Source: Pseudomonadota bacterium (GTDB taxonomy: Bacteria > Desulfobacterota > Desulfobulbia > Desulfobulbales > JAHJIY01). Taken from it: a DNA stretch of 64,000 nucleotides. The stretch spans positions 9,625 to 73,624 of the forward strand of contig JAHJIY010000086.1 in the NCBI GenBank assembly GCA_018823175.1. The letters are read 5' to 3'. Both the position numbers and the translations under genes were made by a program. The stretch's first letter is position 1. Every line of letters starts with the position of its first letter. Below, piece by piece: positions 25,230 through 44,861 of this stretch. Below the pieces are notes generated by a model. That model searched no databases and was not told where the DNA came from. It was given only the letters and a program-made list of their open reading frames with translations.

Positions 25230-26150
25230 ATGTCGATTATTCATAGTTTGCAAAGCATATTGTCTGGTGATCGTAAGGGAATAACGTTTATCAGGACGCT
25301 TCTTAATTTTATGTTGATTGCCTTGATCGCTAATCTGGCGGCCTCGTTGACCTGGGAATTGGCCGGTGTTTCCGGGGGTGACGGCGCGGTGGCCTCGGTG
25401 ACAACCGCAAACGGTCCGCTGAGCAAGAAGGGTAGGGTCGGCATGCGGACAGCCAAGGTTTCTGATTCTGTTGATCTGCATCTTTTCGGCAATGCCGGGA
25501 AGGTCGTAGTCCGTGATCTTAACGATGAACCGACTTCCGCCCCCCAGACTACTTTGAGTCTGGTCCTGAAAGGAATTGTTTTCTCATCGGATACGAGCAG
25601 GGGGCTTGCGATAATCGCTGAGAAAAACAAGACCCAGATCGATAATGTCTATGGTATCGGGGATCAGGTGCCGGGTGATGCCGTGATCAGCGAGATATAT
25701 AATGACCGGGTCATTCTGTTGAGAAACGGGCAACCTGAGACCTTAATGCTTATTGACGTTCTGGTCTCTGAGTCCGCCCCGGTAAGAAGGTCGGTCAGTC
25801 GGGAGAAGATCAGAAGCACGGGAGATGGCAATAAGTTTGCGATAAACGGCAGTTATCTTGATGAAAGGTTGCAGGATATTCCTTCGCTGGCCAAGGAGAT
25901 CGGGGTTGAGGTCTATAAAGAAGATGGTGTCTCGGTCGGCTTTAAGCTGATTTCTTCTCGGGGCAGCAAGTTGTTGACTGATTTGGGGCTGCAGGCCGGG
26001 GATGTCTTGTATGAAGTGAACGGCGTCCGGCTTAATAGTATTCATGGGGGGCTTGAGGCCTATAAGCGGCTGAAGGAAGCGTCTCAGGTCAGGGTTATGA
26101 TCGGCCGAAACGGGAACCGTGAGAACAGGGTTTATTCGATTAACCGGTAG
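25230..26150 (+). CDS. gspC: Type II secretion system protein C (PDZ domain)
   Basis: 306 aa. N-terminal TM helix, a HR-like middle region and a C-terminal PDZ (LGLQAGDVLYEVNGVRL). First gene of the gsp cluster. Confidence 0.8.
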   Translation: MSIIHSLQSILSGDRKGITFIRTLLNFMLIALIANLAASLTWELAGVSGGDGAVASVTTANGPLSKKGRVGMRTAKVSDSVDLHLFGNAGKVVVRDLNDEPTSAPQTTLSLVLKGIVFSSDTSRGLAIIAEKNKTQIDNVYGIGDQVPGDAVISEIYNDRVILLRNGQPETLMLIDVLVSESAPVRRSVSREKIRSTGDGNKFAINGSYLDERLQDIPSLAKEIGVEVYKEDGVSVGFKLISSRGSKLLTDLGLQAGDVLYEVNGVRLNSIHGGLEAYKRLKEASQVRVMIGRNGNRENRVYSINR

Positions 26151-26341
26151 ACTTCTTTTGTTTTAAAAGGGCTTGCCGCGCCCGGCAGCAAATCTTTAAT
26201 TGTCTGAGCATTCGAGCGGCGGGGAAACTCCGGACCTTAGGAGTTATTAACAATCAGATCAGTGCGCGGATCGGACGGCAGGGAGATGTTTTCTGATCCC
26301 ATAAGTCGCGAGGAACGCCTGCTGATCGTGTTCAAAGAAAA

Positions 26342-28303
26342 GTGAAAATGGGAAAAACGCATAGCTGTAAGAAATTGCTGATGGTGCTGATCGTTTCTTT
26401 TTTGATTGTTTTGCCCCGGGTGAGTCCGGCTGAGCTTGAGGTCAGTGATGAGGGCAAGGTTACGGTCAACTTCCAGGATGTGGATATCAGAACGGTGGCA
26501 AAATCGGTCGCTAAGATAACCGGCCGGAGTTTTCTTCTGGATCCGGATATTAAGGGGAATGTGACCATTATTTCATCGGAGCCGGTGTCTGAAAATGAGC
26601 TTTATCCGCTTTTTCTCGCGATTCTGCAGGTCCATGATTTTGTCGCCATTGATAGTGATAACGTAACTAAAATTATTCCTCTGGTTCGGGCCAAACATGA
26701 CAATTTTACGGTAATTGATAGTGAAGGGGACCAGAGTCCGGCCGATAGTGTCGTGACCATCATTTATAAATTGCAGTATGTCGCGGCAGACCAGTTAGTG
26801 CCTATCCTGCGGCCGTTGGTTCCGGCCAAATGTTATCTTGCCGCCCAGGTGGACAGCAATATGCTGATTATCTCCGATCGCAAGGCAAATATTGATCGGT
26901 TAACCGAAATAATCAAGAAGATTGACCTGGAGGAGTCCGGCGATATCGAGATTATGAAACTTGAATATGCCGACGCCGGAGAGGTGGTCTCCGTCATCGA
27001 GGGCCTGGAAGGGAAAGCCAATCCCAAGCGCAATGATAAAAGTTTGCGGCTTATTGCCGATGCCCGGACCAACAGTATTCTTTTAAGTGGCAGCAGTTAT
27101 AATATCCTGCGGATCAAAACCCTGATCACTCATCTTGACTCGCCTATTGAATCAGAGGGTACCACCCAGGTTATTTTCCTGCGCTATGCCAAGGCCAAGG
27201 ATCTGGTCGATATTCTGCGCGGCGTTGATGCCCAGAGTGCAGATAAAAAAAATATCAAACCGTCATCCCAGCGGACCGATCTCATGATTCAGGCCGACGA
27301 ATCGACTAATGCCCTGATTATTAACGCGGCGCCGGCCGTCATGAAAAATATTCGGGCCGTGATCCGTACCCTTGATATCCGCCGGACTCAGGTGTTGATC
27401 GAGGCGATCATCGCCGAGGTTTCAACCGATAAGGGTGCAGAATTAGGGGTCCAGTGGCGGTTGACCGACATGACCAATTCAAGTGATGACGGTTTTATCG
27501 GCGGCACTAATTTTAACACCGGTGATGCCAGTCCGGGCATTAATATTTTGAGCGGCGATCCCGTTTCCGGGGTTATGGGGCTTAATGGCTTTAATCTCGG
27601 CTATGTCAAGGGTACGGCGAGTATTTTGGGTAATACTGTACTGAATATCGGTACTCTGGTCTCGGCCCTGGCCGCCGACGGCGATGCCAATATTCTTTCC
27701 ACCCCCTCGCTGGTGACCATGGACAACGAAGAGGCCGAGATCGTGGTCGGCAAGAATGTGCCTTTTGCCACCGGCAGCTATACCTCGACCGGCAGCAGTA
27801 ACCCGCAAAATCCATTTACTACCTATGAGCGTCATGATGTCGGCGTCAAGCTTAAGGTGATGCCCCAGATCAATGAAGACGATACGATCAGGCTCGATAT
27901 CGTGCAGGAGGTGTCGAATCTGACTTCCGTCGCCACCGATGGCGGGCCGATCACCAATAATCGGACGATTAAAACCATTGTCATGATGGATAACGGTAAA
28001 ATCCTGGTTCTGGGAGGTTTGATCAGCGACGATGTCTCGGAGGTTGAGCAACGAGTGCCGATCCTCGGCAGTATTCCATTAATCGGATATTTTTTCCGTT
28101 ATACCAAAACCGGTCATAATAAACAGAACCTGATGGTTTTCCTGAAGGCGACAATTCTGCGGGATGAAAACGATAGCAACAAGATCACCTTTGATAAATA
28201 TGATTACATGAGACGTCTGCAGATTGATTATCGGGAAGATGGCATCTCTTTGATGCCCGATGAGGTTTCGCCGGTGATGGATGAAATCAAGAAGATTGAA
28301 TAA
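26342..28303 (+). CDS. gspD: Type II secretion system secretin GspD
   Basis: 653 aa. Signal peptide, N0-N3 domains (VNFQDVDIRTVAKSVAKITGRSF) and a C-terminal secretin domain (VPILGSIPLIGYFF). GTG at 26342 or ATG at 26348. Confidence 0.95.
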   Translation: MKMGKTHSCKKLLMVLIVSFLIVLPRVSPAELEVSDEGKVTVNFQDVDIRTVAKSVAKITGRSFLLDPDIKGNVTIISSEPVSENELYPLFLAILQVHDFVAIDSDNVTKIIPLVRAKHDNFTVIDSEGDQSPADSVVTIIYKLQYVAADQLVPILRPLVPAKCYLAAQVDSNMLIISDRKANIDRLTEIIKKIDLEESGDIEIMKLEYADAGEVVSVIEGLEGKANPKRNDKSLRLIADARTNSILLSGSSYNILRIKTLITHLDSPIESEGTTQVIFLRYAKAKDLVDILRGVDAQSADKKNIKPSSQRTDLMIQADESTNALIINAAPAVMKNIRAVIRTLDIRRTQVLIEAIIAEVSTDKGAELGVQWRLTDMTNSSDDGFIGGTNFNTGDASPGINILSGDPVSGVMGLNGFNLGYVKGTASILGNTVLNIGTLVSALAADGDANILSTPSLVTMDNEEAEIVVGKNVPFATGSYTSTGSSNPQNPFTTYERHDVGVKLKVMPQINEDDTIRLDIVQEVSNLTSVATDGGPITNNRTIKTIVMMDNGKILVLGGLISDDVSEVEQRVPILGSIPLIGYFFRYTKTGHNKQNLMVFLKATILRDENDSNKITFDKYDYMRRLQIDYREDGISLMPDEVSPVMDEIKKIE

Positions 28304-28308
28304 TTTAT

Positions 28309-29823
28309 ATGCTTTCTGAAAAAAACATATCGGTTAAAAGACTGCCTTTCTCTTTTGCCAAAAGACACGGCGTGCTTCTGGTCGGGGTTGAGAACGACAA
28401 GGCCCTGGTTACCTGTCGTAACGGTTTACTGCCTTCGGCCCTGGTCGAGATCCGGCGCTTTGCCGGCATGCCTCTGCAGCTTTCGAGGGTTGATCGTGAA
28501 CGCTTTGATACCCTTTTGCAGCAATATTATGAAGGCGGTTCCAGCGATGCCATGCAGATTGCCGATGACCTCGGTGATGATTTTGATCTGCATAGTATCG
28601 CCGAGCAGATGCCGGAAACCGAGGACTTGCTGGAGAGCGAAGATGATGCCCCGATTATCCGGTTGATTAACGGACTGCTGACCGAGGCGATCAAGGAGAA
28701 TGCCTCGGACATTCATATCGAACCATACGAGAGCCGTTTACGGATCCGCCTGCGGGTTGACGGGGTCTTGCGGGAAATTCTGCAGCCGGCTCGGGTACTG
28801 GCGCCGCTGATTATTTCACGGATCAAGGTCATGGCCCGGCTCGATATCGCCGAGAAGAGACTGCCCCAGGACGGGCGGATATCGTTACGGATCGCCGGGC
28901 GACCGGTAGATGTTCGGGTTTCGACCATCCCTTCGGCGGCCGGTGAGAGGGTGGTGTTGCGTTTGCTCGATAAACAGGTAGGGCGCCTTGATTTTCAGAA
29001 TCTCGGGATGTCGGATGTAATCCTGCCGGTCATGAATCGGTTGATTAATCGGCCCAACGGTATTTTGCTGGTGACCGGGCCGACCGGCTCCGGCAAGACC
29101 ACCACCCTCTATGCCGGTCTTACCGTGCTCAATAAAAACAGCCGCAATATCATGACGGTTGAAGATCCGATTGAATACTATCTCGACGGGATCAGTCAGA
29201 CCCAGGTCAATACCAAGGTCGAGATGACTTTTGCCAAGGGCTTGCGGGCCATTCTGCGTCAGGATCCCGATGTGGTAATGATCGGTGAAATCCGGGATCT
29301 GGAAACCGCTGAAATTGCAGTCCAGGCCAGTCTCACCGGTCATCTGGTCCTTTCCACCCTGCACACCAATACCGCGGTGGGGGCGATGACCCGGCTGCGG
29401 GACATGGGGGTTGAGCCGTTTCTGTTGTCGTCGACTATTGTCGGGGTGCTTTCCCAGCGGTTGGTTCGGGTCTTGTGTGAGCATTGCAAAAGGCCGTATC
29501 AGGCGACCAGGTCTGAGTGTGTGAGTCTGGGAATCAGTGTCGATAATCCACCGACCTTTCATGCCGCGGTGGGTTGTGATAAATGTAAGCAGAATGGGTA
29601 TACCGGTCGGACCGGCATTTATGAGCTGGTTGAAATGGATGATACCATCCGGACCATGATTCATGACGGAACCAGTGAACATGAGATTGAAAAATACGCC
29701 CGCCTCCGCTCCGCCCATATCAGACAGGATGGCCTGCGGCGTATTCTCTCCGGCGACACCTCGATTGAAGAAGTATTGCGGGTAACGGCCGAGGACCAGA
29801 AAGAAGACCCTCTGGAACCATGA
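28309..29823 (+). CDS. gspE: Type II secretion system ATPase GspE
   Basis: 504 aa. Walker [10 protein letters not shown], Asp/His boxes and a tetracysteine motif (CEHCK...CDKCK). The N1 domain is of the GspE type. Confidence 0.95.
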   Translation: MLSEKNISVKRLPFSFAKRHGVLLVGVENDKALVTCRNGLLPSALVEIRRFAGMPLQLSRVDRERFDTLLQQYYEGGSSDAMQIADDLGDDFDLHSIAEQMPETEDLLESEDDAPIIRLINGLLTEAIKENASDIHIEPYESRLRIRLRVDGVLREILQPARVLAPLIISRIKVMARLDIAEKRLPQDGRISLRIAGRPVDVRVSTIPSAAGERVVLRLLDKQVGRLDFQNLGMSDVILPVMNRLINRPNGILLVTGPTGSGKTTTLYAGLTVLNKNSRNIMTVEDPIEYYLDGISQTQVNTKVEMTFAKGLRAILRQDPDVVMIGEIRDLETAEIAVQASLTGHLVLSTLHTNTAVGAMTRLRDMGVEPFLLSSTIVGVLSQRLVRVLCEHCKRPYQATRSECVSLGISVDNPPTFHAAVGCDKCKQNGYTGRTGIYELVEMDDTIRTMIHDGTSEHEIEKYARLRSAHIRQDGLRRILSGDTSIEEVLRVTAEDQKEDPLEP

Positions 29824-30050
29824 TGGTCAATGGATCTAAATGCTTTCTCCCCCTTTTAATTCATGCAACAAGATAATAAGGTCTCAGTTTTTGAAAACTT
29901 CAACCGAACTATCCAATGTTTATCTGCCTGATGGCAGTCGGCCTCTTTCTGGTGAGGGCGGTAGATTTTTGATCTCCAGCTGGATAATTAAATCGGATGT
30001 TGTTTTTGATCTGCGGCACTCATTAACGCTCACGAGTTCGGGTAATCTTC

Positions 30051-31265
30051 ATGGGCGCCTTTGAATACAGCGCGGTTGATAAGGCCGGCCGACTTAAGAA
30101 AGGGGTGTTGGAGGGAGATACCCCACGGCAGGTCCGGCAGATTATCAGGGACCGAGGGTTGTCGCCGGTTTCGGTTGAAGCGGTGGCTGAACAGGGGCAA
30201 AGCGGTGCCGTCCCTTTTTTTGGGCGAAGAAGTATCAGCAGTACCGATCTGGCCCTGATTACCCGGCAGCTCGCCACCCTGGTCCGGTCTGGTACTGTTC
30301 TGGAAGAGGCTCTGCGGGCGATTGCCGAACAGGCGGAAAAGGCCAGGATTATCGGCATCGTCACGGCGGTTCGTTCCAAGGTGGTGGAAGGACATCCGCT
30401 GGCCAACGCTTTGGCCGATTTTCCATCGGTATTCTCAAATTTATATCGGGCGACGGTCGGCGCCGGTGAGCAGACGGGCAAGCTTGATCTGGTGCTCGAA
30501 CGGCTGGCCGACCATACCGAATTTAATCAGCAGCTTCGGCAAAAGGTGATGCTGAGCCTTCTCTATCCAACCCTGTTGACCATTGTTGCTATTCTGGTGG
30601 TCTCCGCTCTGTTGACTTATGTGGTGCCGCAGGTGGTTTCGGTTTTTCGTAATATCAATCAGGAATTGCCGTTGTTGACCAAGGTCTTGATCGCCAGCAG
30701 TTCTTTTCTGCGCAGCAACGGTATTTTGATTCTGATCTTACTGGTTGGTTCTTTTGTCTTGTTTCGCTTCCTGATGCGAGGCGAGGGGTTTCGCCTGAAA
30801 TTCCATCATTTATTGCTCCGGCTTCCTCTGGTCTCGAGGTTCACCCGGTCAATCAATACGGCCCGTTTTGCCAGGACTTTCAGCATCTTGACCGCCAGCG
30901 GCGTACCGGTCCTGGAAGGGATGAATATCTCGGCCAAGGTCTTGGATAATCTGGCCATGCGTTATGCGGTTGAAGAGGCCTCCCGCCGGGTTCGGGAGGG
31001 GAGCACCGTCCATCGGACCCTGGCCAAGAGCGGCTATTTTTCCCCGATCATGATCCACCTTATTGCCAGCGGTGAGGCCAGCGCCAATCTTGATGAGATG
31101 CTGGAGCGGGCTGCTATTAATCAGGAACGTGATGTCGAAACCCTGATCGCCGCGGCCATGGGTATTTTTGAACCGCTGCTTATTCTGGTCATGGGTGGCG
31201 TGGTTTTGTTGATTGTTTTGGCGATTTTGTTGCCGATCTTTGATCTGAATCAACTGGTGAAGTGA
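30051..31265 (+). CDS. gspF: Type II secretion system inner-membrane platform protein GspF
   Basis: 404 aa. Duplicated T2SSF domains, three TM segments, and an MGAFEYSAVDKAGR start typical of GspF. Confidence 0.95.
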   Translation: MGAFEYSAVDKAGRLKKGVLEGDTPRQVRQIIRDRGLSPVSVEAVAEQGQSGAVPFFGRRSISSTDLALITRQLATLVRSGTVLEEALRAIAEQAEKARIIGIVTAVRSKVVEGHPLANALADFPSVFSNLYRATVGAGEQTGKLDLVLERLADHTEFNQQLRQKVMLSLLYPTLLTIVAILVVSALLTYVVPQVVSVFRNINQELPLLTKVLIASSSFLRSNGILILILLVGSFVLFRFLMRGEGFRLKFHHLLLRLPLVSRFTRSINTARFARTFSILTASGVPVLEGMNISAKVLDNLAMRYAVEEASRRVREGSTVHRTLAKSGYFSPIMIHLIASGEASANLDEMLERAAINQERDVETLIAAAMGIFEPLLILVMGGVVLLIVLAILLPIFDLNQLVK

Positions 31266-31648
31266 TGCATTCGGGCTTGTCTGATCGCCGGGGGTTTACC
31301 CTGTTGGAGATTCTGGTCGCCCTGGCGGTCCTTAGTCTGGTGGTGGTGGCGGTGTTGAAGAACAATAACGCCATGATCGACAACAGCATATATTTGCGCG
31401 ATAAAACCCTGGCCGGTTTTGTGGCCTCAAACAAGGCGGCTGATCTGGAGCTGGCCAATCTCTGGGTCAAGACCGGCACCGAGCAGGGGGAGGTCGTGCT
31501 GGCCGACCGGCGGTGGTTCTGGACGGTGGTCGGCAAGGAAACGCCTGATCCAGATATGCGGATCGCCGAAATCGAAGTAAGAAGCGAAAATGAAGAGGAG
31601 ACAGCCCTGGCCTCTTTGGTTATTTATCTTGGTCGTCCTCCTTTTTAA
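31262..31648 (+). CDS. gspI: Type II secretion minor pseudopilin GspI
   Basis: 128 aa. Prepilin leader plus GFTLLEILVALAVLSL. Size and position fit GspI. Overlaps the gspF stop codon. Confidence 0.8.
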   Translation: MMHSGLSDRRGFTLLEILVALAVLSLVVVAVLKNNNAMIDNSIYLRDKTLAGFVASNKAADLELANLWVKTGTEQGEVVLADRRWFWTVVGKETPDPDMRIAEIEVRSENEEETALASLVIYLGRPPF

Positions 31649-32300
31649 TGTGCAAGGTAATGGTTTGACTGATAATTATAACGGTTTGGCCGGCAAAGGT
31701 TTTACCCTGTTGGAATTACTTGTCGCCATGTCGATTTTCTCAGTAATGTCGGTTATGGCCTATAGCGGTCTGGCGACGATGATCGTAAGCCGGGAACATA
31801 TGATGGGGGAGGCGGAAAAACTTCAGGCGATCCAGCGGGTCTTTACCCTCATTTCCTATGATTTCAGGCAGGTTCTGGATCGGCCGGTCCGCGATGAGTT
31901 CGGTCAGGATTTAGGCGCCATGCTGGGCACCTTTGATCTGGAAATTGCCGCCGTCGAATTTACCCGAAGTGGCTGGCGTAATCCAACCGGCGCCAAACGC
32001 AGCAGCATGCAGAGGGTTGCTTACGAGCTTGAGAACGATAAGCTGATCAGAAAAAGCTGGCCGGTTTTGGATCGGGCCTATGATAGTAAACCATTTTCAA
32101 CCGTACTACTGTCCGGCGTCGAAAGGTTGGAGATCCGATATTTCAATGCCTATGATCAGGTGACCAACGTCTGGCCGCCGGCTAGCGGCTCGTTAGCTGG
32201 TTCCTTTGGGTCGCTTGCTTTGCCCAAGGCCGTGGAAATTGCGGTTGACCTGAAAGATTGGGGTCGGATTAATCGGCTATTTGTTCTGGTCAACGGATAA
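31590..32300 (+). CDS. gspJ: Type II secretion minor pseudopilin GspJ
   Basis: GFTLLELLVAMSIFSVMSVMAYSGL prepilin N-terminus. The true start is probably the in-frame GTG at 31650, just after the gspI stop, rather than ATG 31590. Confidence 0.8.
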   Translation: MKRRQPWPLWLFILVVLLFNVQGNGLTDNYNGLAGKGFTLLELLVAMSIFSVMSVMAYSGLATMIVSREHMMGEAEKLQAIQRVFTLISYDFRQVLDRPVRDEFGQDLGAMLGTFDLEIAAVEFTRSGWRNPTGAKRSSMQRVAYELENDKLIRKSWPVLDRAYDSKPFSTVLLSGVERLEIRYFNAYDQVTNVWPPASGSLAGSFGSLALPKAVEIAVDLKDWGRINRLFVLVNG

Positions 32301-32329
32301 TTGATTTGTCATATTTGTTGCGGAAAAAC

Positions 32330-33271: not shown

Positions 33272-33326
33272 ACCGATATTTCAGGGCAAATCATTTTGAA
33301 AATTAGGTTATGAGCTGATTGATCAT

Positions 33327-35047: not shown

Positions 35048-35051
35048 TAAT

Positions 35052-35822: not shown

Positions 35823-35963
35823 TCGCCATGTCCTAAGGGGTGAGCAAACCAAGATCCGGTAAAAAGCATGGGTGATTTTCATAGTCAAAACCTTGGGCCT
35901 TTTTTGCGGCTCGTGTTTGTAATGATTTTTTTTGTATCGTATCAGTTAATAAGGAAAACAATA

Positions 35964-36960: not shown

Positions 36961-37324
36961 GCCTTCCCCAAAATAGATATCTTTTTGTCCTAAAATTCTA
37001 ATGGTTATTTTTTGATCGGCACCTTGGGTGACGGGAAAAATGAAGTAGATATTGACCTTAAATATTTAGTTAGTTTAGGATTGATTATTAAAATTTTGGT
37101 GGGCAAAAAAAAACTGTTTTTTTTTTGATTGTTGTAATATCATAAAAAAATGAATATCTGTTCAGCATGATGAGACCTAACAAGACTTGAATTGGAGTTT
37201 GGGCTGTAATAAGCATGAAATAAAGTTATTTACCTCTTGCTTCAAACAACCCAAAATGAGTATATTAAATGTTGTCCATTGTGGATAACATGAGCGCTTA
37301 ACAACAATAAAGGGAGAAGGGTCT

Positions 37325-39445
37325 ATGCAAAAGTTCAAGATTGGATTGCTGATTGTCCTTATGGCAATGGGGTCTGGCCTGTATGGCTGTAGCGGTGATG
37401 ACGGGACTAACGGCGTCAATGGCGTTGATGGTGTCGATGGTTCCGATGGGACGGCAACACACACAGAGGAAAGCTGTACGGTATGTCATGGCGATAATCG
37501 GCTTTTGGATACAGCTGCCCTGCATACCGCAAACGCTACGGCCCTGGCAAACGATGATCTGGTTGGCACGGTCACGGGCATTACCGACGATGGTACTGGC
37601 CTTCTGACAATCGCCTTCTCCGTGGTCGACCAAGACGGTGCAGCAGTTACTGGCATTGCTCAGGGTCGCGCCTATCTGGCCGACATCGTCCCGGCCGGCG
37701 TTGGTACCAACACTTTTGGCTCCTCCTATTTGGAGCGTTGGGCCTACGAAACTAGTACAGGCACCTGGACAGATTTAGGTGCTGGAAACTACACCTATAA
37801 GTTTACTACCGCTGCCGTCCTTGGGGCCGCCGGTTTTGATGCCACGGCCGTAGATTTCGATACGACTCACACTCAGCGTCTGGTCTTGCGTCTTGGCGCT
37901 GATGACCATAATAACGGTCTCATCGTTCAAGACTTCAACCTGACCGGTGCCGGTGCCCAGACTCTGCTTGCTCCTCAACGCGTACTCGCCCCCACCGACG
38001 GCTGCAAGAATTGTCATAGCAACCAGATGGTCGGTGCCGCTCATGCCGATAGCTACCTCGACGTTCGCGCCTGTAACGTTTGTCATAGCCCCATCGGTCA
38101 TTACGCTGCGTCTATGACCGAAGATGATGCCTACATCGGCCGCTTTATTCATGGTATCCATGCTGCGAAGTCTTCGACTGAGTTGCCTGGTTTTGCTGAA
38201 TTTGAAGAGGGTGGCGGCCATGCCCGTTTCCCTGATGCCGCTGGCGTAGACCAAGGTTATGCGGCTGTTACCTATCCCAAAGCGATCAATGACTGTGCTG
38301 CTTGCCATACCGGCAGCGAGAGCATGACTGACGGTTGGAAGAGCAACCCGACGATGGAGATTTGTACCTCATGCCATACCTCCAGCACCGTTAATATCGA
38401 CGGCACCTTTACCCACACCGCAGAGAACACTTCTGCCCCGAGCTCCACCAAAACCAACGCTCAATGTGCCGGTTGTCATGGTGCAACGGATATAGTGGGC
38501 TACCATGCGGTGACCACGCTCAAAGGTGATTCGGCAGTATCTATCACCCCGGTCTATACGGCGACCATTGCCATGACCCCCCCCGCCAACGGTACTCACT
38601 ATGTAGCAGGTGAAGCACCAGTGGTCACGGTTACTACAACTGCATCCGGTGCCTACGACAGTCTTGACAACACTACCGATTATACTGCGGCCACTCTCTA
38701 TGTTTATGGCCCAAGGGCTGAAGCGGTACCGGTCTTGACTCCTGGTTCAACTACTGATCCTGATTATATTTCCATGATTAGTGATGACACTGATCCTGAT
38801 TATGATCCGACCGCACTTCCGACTCAGGGTCATAACATGCGCGCCAGTGATGCTGCAAGCGACGCCAATGTCCTGACCGATGCCACCGGCTTTAAGTATC
38901 AACTTCAGGCAATTCCTGCTGATCTTGCGCCGGGCACCTACATGGCTCAGGTTGCAATTGGCCATACCAGTAGCAGGACCACCGGCAGCCGTAACTACAA
39001 GATTGACGGTTGGCAGATGGTAAGCTTCCAGGTAGGAACGGCTACGACAGAGCAGAGAATTGGTGGCGATAAATGCAGCAATTGCCACGATCTGACCGAC
39101 TGGACCAGCACCTATCATCGTGCTTACTTTGGTACCGACGGTTGTAATGCCTGTCATGACAAATCGGGTAACCACGCTAATCCGATCGCCAACCGGGTCC
39201 ATGCTATCCATGCCTCTAGCGAAGCTGGCGATGCGCTTGGCGCTGATTGGGCGGAAATCACCTTCCCACAAAGCGATGTTGCTGAAGGTGAGCCTGAAAG
39301 CACGCTCTGTCAGGGTTGTCATACTACGGACAATACCAGCTACCTGACTAACCCAGGCGGCTTCCCTTGTCTTGGTTGTCATGGTGATACGCCAAATGCC
39401 GTGGATCATATGATCCAAAATGGTGCTCCGCTTGCAGCACACTAA
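37325..39445 (+). CDS. Decahaem c-type cytochrome lipoprotein, MtrC/OmcA-like
   Basis: 706 aa. Lipobox LYGC (Cys22) followed by the Gly-X-Y linker GDDGTNGVNGVDGVDGSDG. Ten CXXCH motifs have their first Cys at residues 51, 227, 250, 324, 347, 381, 584, 607, 662 and 682. Two haem-free beta-rich segments (GNYTYKF, GTYMAQV) resemble the MtrC/OmcA domain plan. Strong SD AAGGGAGAAGGG. Confidence 0.85.
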   Translation: MQKFKIGLLIVLMAMGSGLYGCSGDDGTNGVNGVDGVDGSDGTATHTEESCTVCHGDNRLLDTAALHTANATALANDDLVGTVTGITDDGTGLLTIAFSVVDQDGAAVTGIAQGRAYLADIVPAGVGTNTFGSSYLERWAYETSTGTWTDLGAGNYTYKFTTAAVLGAAGFDATAVDFDTTHTQRLVLRLGADDHNNGLIVQDFNLTGAGAQTLLAPQRVLAPTDGCKNCHSNQMVGAAHADSYLDVRACNVCHSPIGHYAASMTEDDAYIGRFIHGIHAAKSSTELPGFAEFEEGGGHARFPDAAGVDQGYAAVTYPKAINDCAACHTGSESMTDGWKSNPTMEICTSCHTSSTVNIDGTFTHTAENTSAPSSTKTNAQCAGCHGATDIVGYHAVTTLKGDSAVSITPVYTATIAMTPPANGTHYVAGEAPVVTVTTTASGAYDSLDNTTDYTAATLYVYGPRAEAVPVLTPGSTTDPDYISMISDDTDPDYDPTALPTQGHNMRASDAASDANVLTDATGFKYQLQAIPADLAPGTYMAQVAIGHTSSRTTGSRNYKIDGWQMVSFQVGTATTEQRIGGDKCSNCHDLTDWTSTYHRAYFGTDGCNACHDKSGNHANPIANRVHAIHASSEAGDALGADWAEITFPQSDVAEGEPESTLCQGCHTTDNTSYLTNPGGFPCLGCHGDTPNAVDHMIQNGAPLAAH

Positions 39446-39488
39446 TTGAAAAGGATTAACTCCCATTTCAAGTAAAGTCTCAGTAAAA

Positions 39489-39521
39489 GGGGGCGGGCCG
39501 TAAGGTTCGCCCCCTTTTTTT
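39489..39521 (+). terminator. Rho-independent terminator after the decahaem cytochrome gene
   Basis: GGGGGCG - 12-nt loop - CGCCCCC followed by T7. Confidence 0.85.
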
Positions 39522-39698
39522 GCCCAGTATAAATGACCTGTAAATCTCGCCAATAATGTAGTCGTTTCACCTCTGTAAATTTCAATAAAGTTCTTGACCA
39601 CGAGCAACAAACCTAATCATATAGTAATTTGTCTAAATAATTTGAATGCAGCCCTTTAACTTTGTTGTTCAATCACCACCCGCAAAGGTCCATGTTCA

Positions 39699-41900
39699 AT
39701 GCCTAAAAAACAATCTCATTCCGATTTTCCCCCTGGATCAGAATTAAAGTCAAAGGTTTCTCAACGCTTACCCCTCTGGCAGGCCCTTGTCCTGCCAATA
39801 GTCGCTATCCTGGTCTTTTTTCTGCTCTTGGAAGGCGGACTCGCCCTTTTCGGTCTGCAACCGACCCTGCATAATAAGGACCCCTTTGTCGGCTTTGCTG
39901 CCAATGTCCCACTCTTTACCGCCTCACCTGGAGCAAACGGCAAACAACTGCTGACTACCCCAGCCAATAAAAAGGACTATTTCAACCGGCAGAGTTTTAC
40001 CAAAGAAAAAGATCCGAACACCTATCGTATATTTTCTCTCGGTGGCTCGACCACCTATGGCCGGCCTTACGCTGACAGTACTTCTTTTAGCGGCTGGCTG
40101 CGGCAACTGCTGCCCGTAGCCGACAGCAGTAAAAAATGGGAGGTGATTAACGCCGGTGGCATCAGTTATGCCAGCTATCGGGTTGCCCAGTTGATGGAAG
40201 AGTTGGTTCAGTATCAGCCGGATCTGTTCATCATCTATACCGGTCATAACGAATTCCTTGAAGAACGCACTTACCGTAAACTAAAAGAGATCCCGCCGCT
40301 GATCCGCTCAACTGCTTCGTTGCTGGCCAAAACCCGTACCTGGACAGCCCTGACCGGCGTATTAGAAAAGGTGGACCTCGCGCCGGTTGCGGAAAAGGAA
40401 ACCCGTTTTAAGCTTGGTACGGAAGTTGATGCTATCCTCGATCGTACTACAGGTCCGAAAAGTTACTCGCGTAACGATACCTTGAAAAACAACATCTTAA
40501 ACCATTTTCGGATCAGCCTGGAACAGATGGTTACCCTTGCCCAATCGGTGGGTGCTCAGGTCATTTTTGTCACGCCAGCCGCAAATCTGAAGGAATGTTC
40601 ACCCTTTAAAAGTGAGCACACCCCTGGCATCAATGCCGCATCACTGCGACGCTCCGAAGATTTGCTAACCATGAGCAAGCCAATGGTCTGGGAAAAAAAC
40701 TGGCCCATGGTTCTGCATTTCCTGGATGAGGCGGCGGCCATTGATCCGCGCTTTGCCGATCTACAGTATCATCGCGGTCAGGCTTTACTGGCGTTGGGCC
40801 GCAATAAAGAAGCCAAAACAGCCCTGCGCCTGGCGAGCGACGAAGATGTCTGCCCGCTTCGAGCTTTAACCCCGATGGCTCAAATCGTCACCGAGGTCGC
40901 CAAGCAGCACGGAGCTATGCTGGTCGATTTTATTGATCTCCTGGAGCAGAGGATGGTAAACAACAAAGAGTATCCCATCCTTGGTGCGGAGTTTTTTCTC
41001 GATCATGTGCACCCTACCATTGAAGGCCACAAACTATTGGCGGTCGAACTGCTTGAAACCATGTCTGCCCGAGGCATAGTGCATCCCGGTGCTGACTGGG
41101 GTACAGCAGCCATTTCGGCAGTCGCTGCAAAAATTGAAGCGGGTGTCGATCAATGGGTTCAGGGACATGCTTTGGCTAACCTGGCTCGGGTGCTATTGTG
41201 GGCCGGAAAAGAGCAAGATTCAGCCCGTCTGGCCAGGCAGGCATTGGAGCTCGCTGGTGATAATCAGCAAGTGGCGATCAACGCGACCACTACTCTGGCA
41301 ACCATCTACATCATGCAGAAAAATCCAAAGCGGGCCGTGAAGTTACTTTACGCTGCCCTTGAAAAAGCACCAAGCGCAATCGAGCTACGCCTCAAACTTG
41401 GCCAGATCATGCTGGGTCAGAAATCCCCAAATTTGGAAGGGGCAGCCGCAAATCTGCTATTGATCACCCAGCTGATGCCCTACTATGATGTTGGTCACAC
41501 CATATTCGGCATTGCCATGGCAGATCGAGGTCGTCCGCAAATTGCCTACCCGAGCCTGATGCAGGCGCTGCAGATTAACCCGAATAACAAGGACGCCAGC
41601 TTTAAATTGGCCCAAATCCGGCCCTTGCTCAAGGGGCTGGAATTCAGTCGGAAGTTCCTTCTTGTTCAGCTTGATTATTATCCTTCCACCGCCCCACGCA
41701 AAATGGTTCAGGGACGGCGTAATACCAACGGTCAATTCATCCAGGATGGTATTGAAGTGGAATTTCATGAGAATGGTCGGCTTAAAAGCTTCCTCGATAT
41801 TGAGCAAGGAAAACCAAATGGGCTCGAAATGACTTGGGATTCGGAGGGCAAGGTTTTGTCACGTAAGATTTATAAGCAGGGGATTCTTGTCGATGGTTAG
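39699..41900 (+). CDS. Membrane-anchored SGNH/GDSL-hydrolase-like, TPR and MORN(YwqK-like) fusion protein
   Basis: 733 aa. N-terminal TM helix. SGNH-like blocks are FSLGGSTTYG, NAGGISYAS, GHNEF and DHVHPT. The central region is TPR-like helical repeats. The C-terminal region has MORN/YwqK-like repeats (NGQFIQDGIEVEFHENGRLKS...NGLEMTWDSEGKV). Confidence 0.6.
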   Translation: MPKKQSHSDFPPGSELKSKVSQRLPLWQALVLPIVAILVFFLLLEGGLALFGLQPTLHNKDPFVGFAANVPLFTASPGANGKQLLTTPANKKDYFNRQSFTKEKDPNTYRIFSLGGSTTYGRPYADSTSFSGWLRQLLPVADSSKKWEVINAGGISYASYRVAQLMEELVQYQPDLFIIYTGHNEFLEERTYRKLKEIPPLIRSTASLLAKTRTWTALTGVLEKVDLAPVAEKETRFKLGTEVDAILDRTTGPKSYSRNDTLKNNILNHFRISLEQMVTLAQSVGAQVIFVTPAANLKECSPFKSEHTPGINAASLRRSEDLLTMSKPMVWEKNWPMVLHFLDEAAAIDPRFADLQYHRGQALLALGRNKEAKTALRLASDEDVCPLRALTPMAQIVTEVAKQHGAMLVDFIDLLEQRMVNNKEYPILGAEFFLDHVHPTIEGHKLLAVELLETMSARGIVHPGADWGTAAISAVAAKIEAGVDQWVQGHALANLARVLLWAGKEQDSARLARQALELAGDNQQVAINATTTLATIYIMQKNPKRAVKLLYAALEKAPSAIELRLKLGQIMLGQKSPNLEGAAANLLLITQLMPYYDVGHTIFGIAMADRGRPQIAYPSLMQALQINPNNKDASFKLAQIRPLLKGLEFSRKFLLVQLDYYPSTAPRKMVQGRRNTNGQFIQDGIEVEFHENGRLKSFLDIEQGKPNGLEMTWDSEGKVLSRKIYKQGILVDG

Positions 41901-42245: not shown

Positions 42246-43535
42246 ATGATAATGACTAAATGGTCGGGCCGTTTTTTGGGGTTGGGGATAATGTCGGTAC
42301 TATGTTTGCCGACAGCTGCTTTTGCGGCGGAGATAAGTGTTAAATCCGACACGATCTTCCGGGGCTTTGAACGGGATACCGCGACAGAGTCTGAAGCCAT
42401 GGTGCTTCCTGCCTATGAGTATCTGCAGATTGACGTTGACACTCCAGGCGAGCCGGGACTGGCTCTTCATCTTTATGGCTGGGGGCGCGGAGATTTAGCG
42501 GATAAAGATTATTACGACGACACCACGGACGGGGAAGTCCTCTATGGTTATTTGGAATATAGCAAAAAAGAGGCGCGCTTCAACGCTAAACTTGGTCGGC
42601 AGCACGTGTTTGAAGGGGTGGCCAATGAAACCTTGGATGGCTTGCGGATCAGCTCTGATCTGGGGCGGTATTTTTCCGGATCGCTCTATGGCGGACAACA
42701 GGTCGCGATGAGCGATGAACAGGGGAGGAGTGGCGACAGTATTTATGGTGGCCGTTTGTCCCATCACCTGATCGGCCGTTATGCTCTGGGGGTCTCTTAC
42801 AAGAAAATTACTAATGACAGCGAAGATGCCGAAGAGATGACCGGTGTTGATCTGGCGGCTTATCTGCCTTACGATGTAAACCTGTTTGGGAATTCCACCT
42901 ACAATTTTGAAAGCGAAGACTGGGCTGAACATTCCTATGAAATGCGCGCCACCTTCGGCCAGTTGGCGGTACGTCCATATTTCCAGAAATTTAAATATGA
43001 TGATTATTTCGCTACTGGCGCCAACAGCGCCGGTCCTTTCCGTTTTCTTGCCGACAGCGGTGAGGAGTTGACGGTAGGTGGTGGTGACTTCACCCTGTCG
43101 CTTGATTCCACCTGGGTTCTGGTTGGCAAGTTTAAACATTATACTTATGAAGTGCTTGATGACGCCTCTCCCTATTATGGTGCGCAGGCCACCTGGTCGG
43201 GTGAAAAACACTGCCAGATCGGTGGCGAGGTCGGTTATATGAATGGCGAGGTGGCGCAGAACGACTATTACCTGGTTAGACTTTTCACCTATTGGGACCA
43301 GTTGCCGGCAATCTTGCCGATTGGGTTTGTCAGTGCCGATGTAGTCTATGTTGGATATGACAAGCCGATTTACGAAGAAGACAACTCGCTTTTTGTCTCT
43401 CTTGGCGCCGGCAAAAAGTTTATGGAGGATGCGCTTGAGTTGAAACTTTCCGGTGACTACAGCAGCGATCCTTACTTTGACCAAGACGTGCGGGGGATGT
43501 TGACGGCCAGTTACCGCTTTGGCCATTCACTGTAA
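42246..43535 (+). CDS. Predicted outer-membrane beta-barrel (porin-like) protein of a porin-cytochrome module
   Basis: 429 aa. Sec signal peptide (...LPTAAFA/AE), a pervasive alternating hydrophobic/aromatic pattern, Y/G-rich turns and a near-C-terminal OMP-like ...LTASYRF. No Cys-haem motifs. Immediately followed by two cytochrome genes. Confidence 0.6.
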   Translation: MIMTKWSGRFLGLGIMSVLCLPTAAFAAEISVKSDTIFRGFERDTATESEAMVLPAYEYLQIDVDTPGEPGLALHLYGWGRGDLADKDYYDDTTDGEVLYGYLEYSKKEARFNAKLGRQHVFEGVANETLDGLRISSDLGRYFSGSLYGGQQVAMSDEQGRSGDSIYGGRLSHHLIGRYALGVSYKKITNDSEDAEEMTGVDLAAYLPYDVNLFGNSTYNFESEDWAEHSYEMRATFGQLAVRPYFQKFKYDDYFATGANSAGPFRFLADSGEELTVGGGDFTLSLDSTWVLVGKFKHYTYEVLDDASPYYGAQATWSGEKHCQIGGEVGYMNGEVAQNDYYLVRLFTYWDQLPAILPIGFVSADVVYVGYDKPIYEEDNSLFVSLGAGKKFMEDALELKLSGDYSSDPYFDQDVRGMLTASYRFGHSL

Positions 43536-43564
43536 TGGATTTAATTACGATCAGGAGTCAAGTG

Positions 43565-44035
43565 ATGCGAACGAAATTTTGGATAGGAATTGGATTGTCT
43601 CTTTTGCTGCTGGCCTTGGGTGCTTGCGCAGCATTGGATAGCGGGTTAGATCTGCCGGCACGTCATCAAACGGCGGAGGATTTGGGGGAGGCCCCGAAGA
43701 TGTGTACCAATTGTCATGAGGCGCGCGGGGAGAAGCTGGCGTTTGGCAACTTCAACCATACGGCGACCTGGATGCAGACCCATCGGCAGCAGGCATATCA
43801 ACAGGAGGCTGTGTGTTCGATGTGTCATCAGCCCAGTTTCTGTAGCGACTGTCACGCGTCACGGGTGGAGCTTAAACCATCCTTGAAGAATCAGGCGGAA
43901 ACATCCCGGCAAATGCCGCATCGAGGAGATTATCTGACCAGGCATCGGATTGATGGCCGGGTTGATCCGACCTCTTGCTTCCGCTGTCACGGTAATCCGA
44001 AATCGGCTAAAACTTGCGTCCGTTGTCACGGTTAA
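43565..44035 (+). CDS. Pentahaem c-type cytochrome (small, periplasmic or lipoprotein)
   Basis: Five CXXCH motifs (CTNCH, CSMCH, CSDCH, CFRCH, CVRCH) in about 156 aa. Signal peptide with a possible lipobox ALGAC. ATG 43565 has an AGGAG SD 7 nt upstream; the ORF track starts at 43535. Confidence 0.85.
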   Translation: MRTKFWIGIGLSLLLLALGACAALDSGLDLPARHQTAEDLGEAPKMCTNCHEARGEKLAFGNFNHTATWMQTHRQQAYQQEAVCSMCHQPSFCSDCHASRVELKPSLKNQAETSRQMPHRGDYLTRHRIDGRVDPTSCFRCHGNPKSAKTCVRCHG

Positions 44036-44111
44036 GAGATAAAGTTGAGTTGAGCAGCCTTTCTGCTCAAATGAAACTTATGCCCTTGCGGTATAAGAAG
44101 GAGAAAACTAG

Positions 44112-44861
44112 ATGCTACGCTCATTTGCCTTTTTGATGTTGTTTCTTATCCCCTTCGCCCTGACCGGTTGTGGTGAAGGAAATTCTAATGCGCCTTTGGA
44201 TACAGAGCCCCATCCAGAGTCATGGATTTCGACTCATTCTGCGGCCGCCATCGCTGATGCTGGATACACGGGATGTATCAGCTGCCACGGTTCAGATCTG
44301 ACTGGTTATGGTGAGGTGCCCAGTTGCTATTCCTGTCACGTCTTTAACACCAGCCCGCCTTTAACGATTCATCCGGCGGCCTGGACCAATATCTATGTTA
44401 ATCATCGTGGCTCAGCAGATATCACCATTTGTGAAAATTGTCATGGTGTGCTTTTGCAGGGTAGTGAGTCTGCACCCAGTTGTTATTCAAGCATTTTCGA
44501 TGGTTTAAGTTGTCATGCAGCCGGCCCAGGACAGGCGCCTCATCCCGTCGATACTTCTTATTTGTCTGGTACTGTTCATGGTCCAGTTGCCAAATCGGAT
44601 TTGAGAGTATGCCAGGCCTGTCATGGCCAGGCGGGTGGACCGGGAGATAATCCGCGCTTTAATGTCGGGATCAGTAGTGCAGGTGGTAATGGTTGTGAGT
44701 CATGCCATGGTACCAACTATGCCCATCCGGCCAGCTGGATGAGTGGTCATCGTTCAGCCGGGAATATCTCGAATGTCTGCACCCTCTGTCATGGGGTCGC
44801 TCTTGATGGTAGTGGCGGAGTAGGTATCAGTTGCGGAACATGCCATGGAATCCCAGGGTAA
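44112..44861 (+). CDS. Multihaem c-type cytochrome lipoprotein (7 CXXCH plus 1 CX9CH)
   Basis: 249 aa. Lipobox LTGC (Cys20). Seven CXXCH motifs (CISCH, CYSCH, CENCH, CQACH, CESCH, CTLCH, CGTCH) plus CYSSIFDGLSCH. Four tandem two-haem modules. AAGGAG SD. Confidence 0.85.
   Translation: MLRSFAFLMLFLIPFALTGCGEGNSNAPLDTEPHPESWISTHSAAAIADAGYTGCISCHGSDLTGYGEVPSCYSCHVFNTSPPLTIHPAAWTNIYVNHRGSADITICENCHGVLLQGSESAPSCYSSIFDGLSCHAAGPGQAPHPVDTSYLSGTVHGPVAKSDLRVCQACHGQAGGPGDNPRFNVGISSAGGNGCESCHGTNYAHPASWMSGHRSAGNISNVCTLCHGVALDGSGGVGISCGTCHGIPG

Follow-up and report, generated by a model that had tools for sequence, protein, structure and literature searches.

A complete type II secretion system (T2SS) gene cluster and a set of outer-membrane electron-transfer genes lie side by side in the 64-kb stretch of DNA analysed here (the window), and the same pairing is carried by several unrelated uncultured sediment bacteria. 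The reading we favour, at a probability of roughly 0.6, is that these are two functionally related, separately transcribed gene sets: a general T2SS, and an electron-transfer module whose cytochromes the T2SS displays. Judged from sequence comparison, the conserved unit is the module itself, a decahaem cytochrome gene and a Pcc-like trio, often with an SGNH/TPR protein gene; adjacency to the T2SS is facultative, recurrent and probably selected. The linkage is neither an operon, nor a dedicated secretion system, nor a complete pathway.

The secretion genes encode a complete, general T2SS

Twelve gsp genes occupy positions 25230-36960 of the + strand, each above its Pfam gathering threshold, in the order gspC-D-E-F-I-J-K-L-M-N-G-H; G and H have shifted to the cluster end. 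The decahaem gene follows on the same strand, as the initial annotation had read from the sequence. The gspC product (25230..26150, 306 aa) has an HR domain and a weak PDZ domain (Pfam T2SSC, E 2.6e-31); its best NCBIfam model, GspC_delta, scored 124 bits, below the cut-off of 150. The secretin GspD (26342..28303, 653 aa) contains N0, three Secretin_N stretches and a secretin domain by Pfam, and its nearest relatives, at 58-62% identity, are named Desulfurivibrionaceae, Desulfobulbales or Desulfobulbaceae. The ATPase gene gspE (28309..29823, 504 aa; T2SSE, E 1.3e-152; GSPE_N1E, E 3e-21) is followed by gspF for the inner-membrane platform protein (30051..31265; T2SSF in two stretches, E 2.6e-54) and by the minor pseudopilin genes gspI (31262-31648; T2SSI) and gspJ (31590-32300; T2SSJ), both with an N_methyl prepilin motif, and gspK (32306-33271; T2SSK). 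The remainder comprises gspL (33327-34568; T2SSL and GspL_C), gspM (34565-35047; T2SSM), gspN (35010-35822; T2SSN), the major pseudopilin gene gspG (35868-36428; T2SSG, E 3.5e-42) and gspH (36328-36960; Pfam GspH and N_methyl; NCBIfam gspH 93.7 against a cut-off of 80). The true starts of gspG and gspH are probably internal, shortly ahead of their G↓FTL(I/L)E cleavage motifs.

By its sequence, this T2SS is complete and general, and its cluster and gene order ('type A') are standard for Desulfobulbales-like bacteria. None of the eight nearest sampled type-A clusters (L056-L058, L139-L143) has cytochromes beside it, and the proposal of a dedicated secretion machine has to give way to an ordinary Desulfobulbales-type system.

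The module combines an MtrC-type cytochrome with a Pcc-like trio

The gene at 37325..39445 (+) encodes an OmcA/MtrC-family decahaem lipoprotein of 706 aa, with 10 CXXCH motifs, a lipobox (LYGC, Cys22) followed by a Gly-rich linker, and matches to the Pfam MtrC/MtrF N and II/IV domains, in agreement with its original description as a 10-haem lipoprotein cytochrome. A profile search of PDB sequences retrieved MtrF (3pmq, E 4.8e-59) and MtrC (6r2q_C, E 6.5e-40), and the best 15 Foldseek matches of its AlphaFold2 (AF2) model were all MtrC, OmcA, UndA or MtrF. The protein is nevertheless divergent, scoring 172 bits with TIGR03507 against a cut-off of 209 and sharing about 16% structure-based identity with solved MtrC.

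The next gene (39699..41900, +) encodes an SGNH/GDSL hydrolase-TPR protein of 733 aa. Its SGNH domain (Lipase_GDSL_2, 40.6 bits; gathering score 32.9) and TPR repeats (TPR_14, TPR_19) are above the Pfam thresholds, whereas the MORN repeats also assigned to it are not (MORN_2, 21.8 bits, gathering score 29.6). By inspection of the sequence, candidate Ser/Asp/His catalytic motifs are present, and the N-terminus, with positive charges ahead of one hydrophobic segment, resembles an anchor in the inner membrane more than a signal peptide that is cleaved off. Among the module's proteins this one is the most conserved, at 53-67% identity to its homologues in neighbours, compared with 32-48% for the decahaem protein at the same loci.

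The trio begins with an outer-membrane beta-barrel (42246..43535, +; 429 aa) that has a signal peptide and 22 predicted strands, seen in an AF2 model with a pLDDT of 78.5. No Pfam family matched it, its family, with about 600 members, is uncharacterised (597 homologues, all 'hypothetical'), and Foldseek returned generic outer-membrane barrels only, with MtrB absent from the best 50. The pentahaem c-type cytochrome gene (43535..44035, +; 166 aa, 5 CXXCH) overlaps the barrel gene by ATGA, which couples the translation of the two, and its product is probably a lipoprotein, with a Cys at a lipobox-like position in nearly all homologues listed. The third gene (44112..44861, +) encodes a lipoprotein cytochrome of 249 aa with the lipobox LTGC, and its homologues elsewhere carry 4-21 CXXCH motifs. 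Barrel and five-haem protein were correctly named at the outset; the supposed 8-haem member has 7 CXXCH motifs, and the label is defensible on account of one CX9CH kept in all homologues.

The gene sets are transcribed separately and are not a self-contained island

Upstream of the gsp cluster, an Hsp20 gene (24553-25005) ends in an intrinsic terminator (25030..25061, +; -18.2 kcal/mol, z -4.7, then a U-run) that would shield the cluster from upstream transcription. The blocks are separated, as initially noted, by AT-rich spacers of 364, 253 and 345 bp (GC 0.32, 0.39 and 0.31 against a window mean of 0.49). In the spacer between gspH and the decahaem gene (36961..37324, +), no stable hairpin was found in the first 100 nt and no terminator-like site by consensus scan, which did call one promoter-like site at 37052-37081. 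A promoter for the decahaem gene probably sits in this spacer, and read-through from gspH is possible. Strong intrinsic terminators, also part of the earlier description, follow the decahaem gene (39485..39521, +; -29.9 kcal/mol, z -5.64, then a U7 run) and the trio (44940..44979, +; -25.2 kcal/mol, z -6.73); neither hairpin was equalled in folding by any of 200 shuffles, and the consensus terminator scan called neither. No common regulatory motif stood out in the spacers above shuffled controls. With the terminator after the decahaem gene and the long AT-rich spacers, the region from gsp to trio comprises at least four transcription units, and not one unit of about 20 kb.

The flanks encode Hsp20, MgtC and polyamine genes and carry no mobility genes such as those for integrase or transposase, and GC is uniform over the region, which does not fit the term island; tRNA-Val and tRNA-Asp genes lie 2.6 kb upstream of gspC. 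The region is also not self-contained, because it lacks an inner-membrane quinol oxidase, a periplasmic carrier and ccm genes (for quinol oxidase and ccm genes the immediate flanks were covered as well); the entire 64 kb holds no CXXCH protein besides the region's cytochromes.

The T2SS-decahaem linkage recurs but is facultative

A T2SS immediately adjoins a homologous decahaem gene in at least five other genomes (L001, L006, L011, L052 and L016, the last at a contig edge), so this genome is not alone in having the linkage. In all five, gspC and the decahaem gene stand head-to-head across 550-1000 bp, unlike the co-directional genes of the window, giving two orientations overall. L006 has a type A system in the window's gene order, with a GspD 53% identical to the window's; the other four have a 'type B' system in the order CDEFGHIJK, with GspD 32-35% identical. 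In L055 (Thiotrichales), gspL-M-N begin 338 bp after an MtrC-family gene. The linked cases thus span at least two T2SS lineages, and probably three. No gene intervenes between T2SS and decahaem gene in any linked case. Of the five other loci with an adjoining T2SS, four share the SGNH/TPR gene with the window, and L006 lacks it. A metagenome scan yielded no additional linked case.

Recurrence is thus one outcome of the gene-neighbourhood check, and frequent absence is the other. A T2SS neighbours 4 of the 42 distinct decahaem loci whose upstream sequence extends for 8 kb or more, and about half of the closest cytochrome-module relatives are without one. Many close relatives of the module, the cultured Geopsychrobacter electrodiphilus (L003) and Citrifermentans bremense (L144) among them, lack a T2SS within 10 kb. 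In L139, one contig carries both the module and a T2SS 77-89% identical to that of L006, with 55 kb between them. The Pcc-like trio, for its part, lies beside the decahaem gene at 18 of 31 well-flanked loci. When the window is compared with L001, identity is 62-66% for the barrel, pentahaem and SGNH proteins and about 48% for the decahaem proteins, against 32% for GspD and 36% for GspF. Across lineages, similarity is higher among module proteins than among the T2SS proteins encoded next to them, which suggests that the module travelled on its own and settled beside different resident T2SSs.

The adjacency could be coincidental, a housekeeping T2SS and a functionally unrelated module having met in a few rearrangements retained by shared ancestry, with the cytochromes surfacing otherwise. 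The unlinked state of all eight closest T2SS relatives and of 38 of the 42 decahaem loci agrees with this, as do the separate transcription units and the spacers without a common motif. Because the linked decahaems placeable on the tree all fall within one subclade (6 linked and 7 unlinked loci with enough flank), independent linkage events may number only 2-3. However, the chance expectation of a T2SS beside a decahaem gene is roughly 0.1-0.8% per genome or locus, and the binomial probability of at least three independent events is still about 1e-5 to 5e-3. Coincidence would also have to accommodate two linked lineages of divergent GspD and different gene order, a third in L055, an immediate adjacency every time, and a known functional reason, the T2SS requirement of Shewanella MtrC/OmcA; we regard it as unlikely.

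Secreted GDSL lipases are classic T2SS substrates, and the SGNH protein, being the module's most conserved and encoded at most linked loci, might be the cargo, with the cytochromes as bystanders. This is very improbable: L006 is linked without the gene, many loci bear it without a T2SS, the T2SS is always adjoined by the decahaem gene and not by the SGNH gene, and the N-terminus suggests retention at the inner membrane. We give equally little credence to a mobile island ferrying T2SS and cytochromes jointly between genomes. The nearby tRNA genes and the apparent movement of the module between lineages would suit it, but mobility genes are missing from the flanks and GC is uniform; moreover, the T2SS did not accompany the module, because it groups with the presumed host lineage and its order is common to unlinked relatives.

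A general T2SS serving an electron-transfer module, our preferred reading, would work as follows. The module would consist of a surface OmcA/MtrC-type decahaem cytochrome, a membrane-anchored SGNH/TPR protein as putative accessory enzyme, and a Pcc-like conduit of 22-strand barrel, 5-haem lipoprotein and 7/8-haem lipoprotein, in the topology we infer. Sec would export the cytochromes, which would receive their haem in the periplasm, be lipidated and be routed to the outer membrane. By analogy with Shewanella and from the gene neighbourhood, the T2SS would then drive the folded decahaem protein outward by way of the GspD secretin, and probably the 7/8-haem lipoprotein as well. Once on the outer face, they would dock on the barrel/5-haem complex and hand respiratory electrons to minerals or partner cells. 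Sequence does not tell which proteins are T2SS cargo, since the substrates of these systems bear no signal that can be recognised in it. The pairing is a useful, non-obligatory clue that the T2SS places cytochromes on the cell surface, because it recurs in unrelated bacteria and is absent from most relatives. Overall, the gene identities given by the initial annotation hold and the linkage recurs; the single, self-contained island with its own machine is not supported.

Comparison with known systems

Two features are new here: T2SS and cytochrome genes are recurrently found in physical linkage in Desulfobacterota, and an MtrC-type cytochrome is combined with a conduit other than MtrAB; T2SS-dependent display of MtrC/OmcA in Shewanella was already known. 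The open-access literature, including the most relevant papers and full text, yielded no description of such a linkage, in line with the earlier impression that it is undescribed. To our knowledge, Shewanella carries its gsp cluster apart from its mtr cluster, whereas gsp and cytochrome genes abut in the window. Like the window, Shewanella oneidensis has a full Gsp system of 12 genes and a decahaem lipoprotein, the two decahaems agreeing in family and fold. The proposed mechanism, surfacing of a folded, haem-loaded lipoprotein by the T2SS, is established in that species, where MtrC/OmcA placement needs Gsp translocation (PMC3279761). The window differs in lacking MtrA/MtrB, the 22-strand barrel having no MtrB match, and in the divergence of its decahaem protein.

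The likeness to Geobacter Pcc rests on gene order, strand number, haem counts and the CXnCH motif (Liu 2014, PMC4282303; Shi 2014, PMC4245776). The trio follows the ombB-omaB-omcB order (porin-like barrel, small multihaem, outer-membrane lipoprotein multihaem), its 22 strands and 5 and 7+1 haems fall inside the published ranges of 18-22 strands and 1-16 haem motifs, and its outer cytochrome has an atypical CXnCH motif, as also published. Pcc group II is reported in Desulfurivibrio and Desulfuromonas (same sources), the lineages of the trio's relatives. In contrast to Pcc, the small cytochrome is apparently a lipoprotein, and an MtrC-type decahaem and an SGNH/TPR gene, sometimes with a T2SS, are attached to the cluster.

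Desulfuromonas acetexigens offers OmcA/MtrC-family cytochromes in the same phylum, Desulfobacterota; its mtrC is not clustered with mtrAB, the MtrAB homologues that the work assigns to MtrC as partners being encoded at other sites in the genome, and secretion genes go unmentioned (ISME J 2025, PMC12133095). The conserved neighbours of the window's decahaem gene are instead the Pcc-like trio and, in a subset, the T2SS. In the related Geobacter sulfurreducens, a T2SS-type machine is likewise tied to extracellular electron transfer: according to Mehta 2006, as cited in PMC4282303, an atypical T2SS with the OxpG pseudopilin is needed to reduce insoluble acceptors, and its reported cargo is a multicopper protein. 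The T2SS of the window, unlike that system as cited, is canonical and complete, and is adjoined by cytochrome genes.

The secretion genes and the decahaem lipoprotein

Type II secretion systems (T2SSs) carry proteins that have folded in the periplasm out through the outer membrane. ORF listing and translation placed 17 plus-strand genes in positions 25230-44861, the first twelve of which form the T2SS cluster (25230-36960). As the initial annotation had proposed, all twelve are gsp genes (C, D, E, F, I, J, K, L, M, N, G, H), each scoring above its Pfam gathering threshold, in an unusual order that places gspG and gspH after gspN. The GspD secretin passed the gathering scores for type_II_gspD_N0, Secretin_N (three stretches) and Secretin, and the GspE ATPase carries T2SSE together with the N1E domain GSPE_N1E. 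The inner-membrane platform and GspC were recognized by T2SSF, T2SSL with GspL_C, T2SSM and T2SSC, and the pseudopilins by T2SSG (major) and by GspH, T2SSI, T2SSJ and T2SSK (minor), with the prepilin N-methylation motif (N_methyl) found in G, H, I and J. No gene for the prepilin peptidase GspO was found within 25230-36960; this gene is often encoded elsewhere in the genome, away from the gsp cluster.

The gene that adjoins gspH (37325-39445) encodes a lipoprotein decahaem cytochrome, as had been claimed. In the 706-aa product there are ten CXXCH motifs; the lipobox reads LYGC (residues 19-22), and its Gly21 and Cys22 do not vary among 20 homologues. Pfam MtrC-MtrF_N scored 34.3 against a gathering score of 27.7, and the MtrC/MtrF II/IV domain scored 100.8 against 30, in two stretches; the score for NCBIfam TIGR03507 was under the curated cut-off (172.5 versus 209.3 bits). 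The protein has the four-domain layout of the family (barrel, pentahaem, barrel, pentahaem), and strand and helix blocks alternate in an AlphaFold2 model of moderate quality (pLDDT 68). A single-sequence search of PDB sequences gave no match, but a profile built from the decahaem and 19 homologues matched MtrF (3pmq, E 4.8e-59) and MtrC of the MtrCAB complex (6r2q_C, E 6.5e-40), as well as UndA and other MtrC entries. The top 15 Foldseek matches of the model were all MtrC, OmcA, UndA or MtrF, with E values down to 3e-21. The decahaem is a divergent member of the OmcA/MtrC family.

The trio and the SGNH/TPR protein

The trio at 42246-44861 had been described as a barrel, a 5-haem and an 8-haem cytochrome. 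The first two descriptions hold; the third protein has seven CXXCH motifs plus one CX9CH, and counting eight haems is a reasonable reading because the CX9CH is kept in every homologue. The barrel (42246-43535) had no Pfam match, and its profile found no match among PDB sequences. AlphaFold2 predicted a 22-strand beta-barrel (pLDDT 78.5), and the family of about 600 members, all named "hypothetical", has a constant length of 427-430 aa. MtrB was absent from the top 50 Foldseek matches of the barrel, which were generic large outer-membrane barrels. Its gene overlaps that of the 5-haem protein (43535-44035) by ATGA. The latter protein has five CXXCH motifs, a Cys at a lipobox-like position in nearly all homologues listed, and one marginal match in a single-sequence search of PDB sequences. 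The 7-haem protein (44112-44861) has the lipobox LTGC and gave no match in the same kind of search. The whole trio is closest to that of Desulfurivibrionaceae metagenome-assembled genomes (MAGs), with 88% identity in the 5-haem protein.

The length of the outer lipoprotein cytochrome varies. It has 249-286 aa and seven CXXCH motifs in the window and two Desulfurivibrionaceae-type loci, and reaches 882 aa and 21 CXXCH motifs in other genomes. Its N-terminal 250 aa and the CX9CH are conserved in the window and in five of the compared genome and metagenome loci (L001, L006, L011, L035, L087).

Between the decahaem gene and the trio lies a gene (39699-41900) whose product had been called an SGNH-TPR-MORN protein. 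Its SGNH/GDSL and TPR domains were recovered, and the MORN-like C-terminus dropped out as sub-threshold. This protein is more conserved than the adjacent decahaem, at 53-67% versus 32-48% identity in the same loci. Its gene, which marks one decahaem subclade, was seen in the window and in L001, L003 (Geopsychrobacter electrodiphilus), L004, L005, L009, L011, L016, L019, L028, L035, L052, L060 and L087. In L003 and L016 a carbamoyltransferase gene follows it, a hint that a surface glycan or lipid is modified. No description of this partner was found in the open-access literature. In L052 the decahaem gene (9881-11716) and the SGNH/TPR gene (12576-14752) are each split into several ORFs, reflecting either assembly frameshift errors or pseudogenes.

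Transcription signals

The AT-rich spacers and strong terminators reported for this region were both borne out. The spacers measure 364, 253 and 345 bp, with a GC content of 31-39% versus 49% for the window, and the terminators at 39485-39521 and 44940-44979 have folding energies of -29.9 and -25.2 kcal/mol, which no shuffled sequence matched. A third terminator (25030-25061) closes the upstream Hsp20 gene, and neither a consensus scan nor direct folding found one between gspH and the decahaem gene. The consensus scan missed the two strongest terminators of the region, which direct folding showed clearly. Among six intergenic spacers, a search for shared 12-mers with up to two mismatches on both strands found no motif in excess of shuffled controls: the best 12-mer occurred in three other spacers, and the controls reached two to four. 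The region had been taken for one unit; it is not an operon, the blocks having their own spacers and terminators.

Linkage of T2SS and decahaem genes across genomes

To see whether the linkage extends beyond this genome, the 17 proteins encoded at 25230-44861, together with a second set of T2SS proteins, were mapped onto fetched loci, comprising 51 genome and 80 metagenome loci that encode decahaem relatives, plus several exact look-up neighbourhoods. The T2SS lies directly beside the decahaem gene in L001, L006, L011 and L052, and also in L016, there at a contig edge. These five loci all place gspC head-to-head with the decahaem gene, across 550-1000 bp that contain no other gene; the window T2SS has the other orientation, with gspH adjoining the decahaem gene. 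In a Thiotrichales MAG (L055, 1-3385) the contig begins within an MtrC-family decahaem gene, of which the C-terminal part remains, and gspL-M-N lie 338 bp beyond it on the same strand; this T2SS probably represents a third lineage. Linkage is therefore not unique to the window, but it is facultative, as many relatives are unlinked.

The T2SSs beside decahaem genes fall into distinct types. Type A, in the window and L006, has the order CDEFIJKLMNGH and GspD proteins 50-77% identical to one another. Type B, in L001, L011 and L052, has the order CDEFGHIJK and GspD proteins 32-35% identical to those of type A; the L016 system is probably type B, judged from gspC alone. The type A order, with the major pseudopilin gene at the end, is common to all ten Desulfobulbales-type clusters compared (window, L006, L056-L058 and L139-L143), as far as the contigs extend, and differs from that of the second lineage (L001, L011, L052). 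Two type B clusters have a small gene between gspC and gspD (L001 7747-8118; L011 7923-8330), and that of L001 matches Pfam 23S_rRNA_IVP.

In a neighbour-joining tree, all placeable linked decahaems fell into one subclade, the same that carries the SGNH/TPR gene. Linked and unlinked members are interleaved within it, with six linked and seven unlinked among the loci with enough flank. Between the window and L001, the barrel, the 5-haem cytochrome and the SGNH protein are 62-66% identical, and GspD and GspF 32-36%. Because the proteins of the cytochrome module (the decahaem and the trio, often with the SGNH/TPR protein) are more similar between lineages than the adjoining T2SS proteins are, these sequence comparisons fit a history in which the module moved and came repeatedly to lie beside a resident T2SS.

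How far the linkage exceeds chance was estimated from the 42 distinct loci whose upstream flank reached 8 kb or more, four of which have a T2SS. The chance expectation, roughly estimated for a genome of about 4 Mb, is about 0.8% for "within 10 kb" and about 0.1% for "immediate neighbour". For three independent events P is then about 5e-3 and about 1e-5, respectively, the independence assumption being the weak point. Of the 31 distinct loci flanked by 8 kb or more on each side, 18 had the barrel trio, 8 the SGNH/TPR gene and 4 a T2SS. The pairing of decahaem and trio reaches the cultured G. electrodiphilus and Citrifermentans bremense (L144), neither of which has a T2SS nearby. A metagenome scan with the decahaem profile, which supplied the 80 further loci, mostly on short contigs, revealed no new T2SS linkage.

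We then weighed whether the T2SS might be a system dedicated to these cytochromes, or the whole region a mobile island. The eight closest long-contig relatives of the window GspD (L056, L057, L058, L139-L143) all have the same twelve-gene order, as far as contigs extend, and none has a decahaem or trio gene beside the T2SS. The L139 T2SS lies on the same contig as the module locus L005, 55 kb away from it, and is 77-89% identical to the linked T2SS of L006. These unlinked relatives, L139 among them, indicate an ordinary lineage T2SS and no dedicated paralogue, and the comparison of L139 with L006 shows that linkage comes and goes between close relatives. A dedicated T2SS was therefore rejected, and so was a mobile island: the flanks lack mobility genes, the GC content is even across the region, and the T2SS follows the host lineage, its GspD relatives being named Desulfurivibrionaceae, Desulfobulbales or Desulfobulbaceae. 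Judged from these GspD relatives and from the Desulfurivibrionaceae affinity of the trio, the host is probably a member of Desulfobulbales.

Gene content of the surroundings

The region had also been proposed to be self-contained, which would call for genes of a quinol oxidase in the inner membrane, of carriers in the periplasm and of cytochrome maturation alongside the outer-membrane parts. This set was not found: the 64 kb encode only three CXXCH proteins, and no ccm genes and no inner-membrane quinol oxidase turned up in the region or in the sequence immediately flanking it. The flanking genes code for Hsp20, MgtC, polyamine enzymes and an MshEN-like c-di-GMP-binding protein. The relative L004 differs in having NrfD/Fer4/Rieske-cytochrome b genes beside its module; in L004 1242-9346 the module adjoins two sets of NrfD/Fer4 genes and one of Rieske-cytochrome b genes with multihaem cytochromes, making this locus a candidate for a more complete pathway than the window.

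Two tRNA genes (tRNA-Val and tRNA-Asp) lie at 22511-22672, 2.6 kb upstream of gspC, with no integrase seen. On the minus strand at 23749-24321, about 0.9 kb upstream of gspC with the Hsp20 gene between, is the gene for a protein of 190 aa whose MshE-related c-di-GMP-binding domain scored 27 bits with NCBIfam NF053729, under the cut-off of 38. L056, a sister MAG whose GspD is 60% identical, encodes on the opposite strand (476-3472) an MtrB_PioB barrel and an MtrA-like cytochrome, about 5.5-8.5 kb upstream of gspC and separated from it by four unrelated genes. This pair may be another loose association of T2SS and electron transfer, or chance.

Discussion

How metal-respiring Desulfobacterota (Geobacter and relatives, Desulfuromonas, Desulfobulbales) bring large haem-loaded cytochromes to the surface is an unsettled question. 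To our knowledge, T2SS-dependent display of cytochromes has been proven only in Shewanella. In that genus, lipoprotein cytochromes already loaded with haem reach the outer face through the T2SS (PMC3279761). The best-supported reading of our results transfers this paradigm to Desulfobacterota: the T2SS would move haem-loaded lipoprotein cytochromes to the outer face, where they would work with a conduit like the Geobacter-type porin-cytochrome (Pcc) clusters and not with MtrAB. That the cytochromes are T2SS cargo is suggested by gene neighbourhood and by analogy with Shewanella. The recurrent, immediate linkage of MtrC-type genes with T2SSs of at least two lineages is independent genomic support for a Shewanella-like route, and a moderately interesting clue to cytochrome display. 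It points to concrete parts, namely the decahaem, the 22-strand barrel, the 5-haem and 7/8-haem lipoproteins and the very conserved SGNH/TPR enzyme. What the initial annotation observed is confirmed, and its interpretation is supported in part.

A fuller account can be offered tentatively, at a probability of roughly one in three. Selection would repeatedly put an MtrC-type module beside the host's T2SS, often with a shared divergent gspC/decahaem control region of 0.5-1 kb, the T2SS being the general, rate-limiting display route for multihaem lipoproteins in Desulfobacterota. The module itself would be an unrecognised hybrid conduit, in which an MtrC-type terminal reductase docks on a Pcc-type barrel and assembly is helped by the dedicated SGNH/TPR enzyme.

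We found no earlier description of T2SS-cytochrome gene linkage in the open-access literature, an absence that is not proof. Secretion-gene linkage is unmentioned in papers on Mtr evolution (PMC8805035), on MtrC in Desulfobacterota (PMC12133095) and on iron respiration in Desulfurivibrio (PMC12545173), and in a large-scale survey of cytochrome gene neighbourhoods (PMC11475568). The pairing of MtrC with a Pcc-like conduit and the conserved SGNH/TPR partner are by-products worth following, and the former bears on the annotation of extracellular-electron-transfer genes in metagenomes.

Two known conduits invite comparison. Beside the decahaem gene there is no MtrA, a periplasmic decahaem, the only other CXXCH proteins of the window being the 5- and 7-haem proteins, and no MtrB, a 26-strand barrel recognized by Pfam MtrB_PioB, since the barrel encoded here has no Pfam match and 22 predicted strands. 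An MtrCAB conduit with adjacent MtrA and MtrB is thus absent from the window. Pcc clusters have barrels of 18-22 strands, 1-16 haem motifs per cytochrome and, in the outer cytochrome, atypical CX3-15CH motifs; group II clusters are known from Desulfurivibrio and Desulfuromonas (PMC4282303, PMC4245776). The trio resembles the Geobacter Pcc cluster ombB-omaB-omcB in content and order, and its 22 strands, its 5 and 7 haem motifs and its CX9CH are all inside the published ranges. Membership was judged in PMC4245776 by BLAST-level homology to Geobacter OmbB, OmaB or OmcB; the trio here is called Pcc-like by gene order, strand number, haem counts and atypical motif. MtrC-type cytochromes in Desulfobacterota usually sit with such a Pcc-like conduit and not with MtrAB. 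The novelty of the finding lies in how systems of known kinds are arranged.
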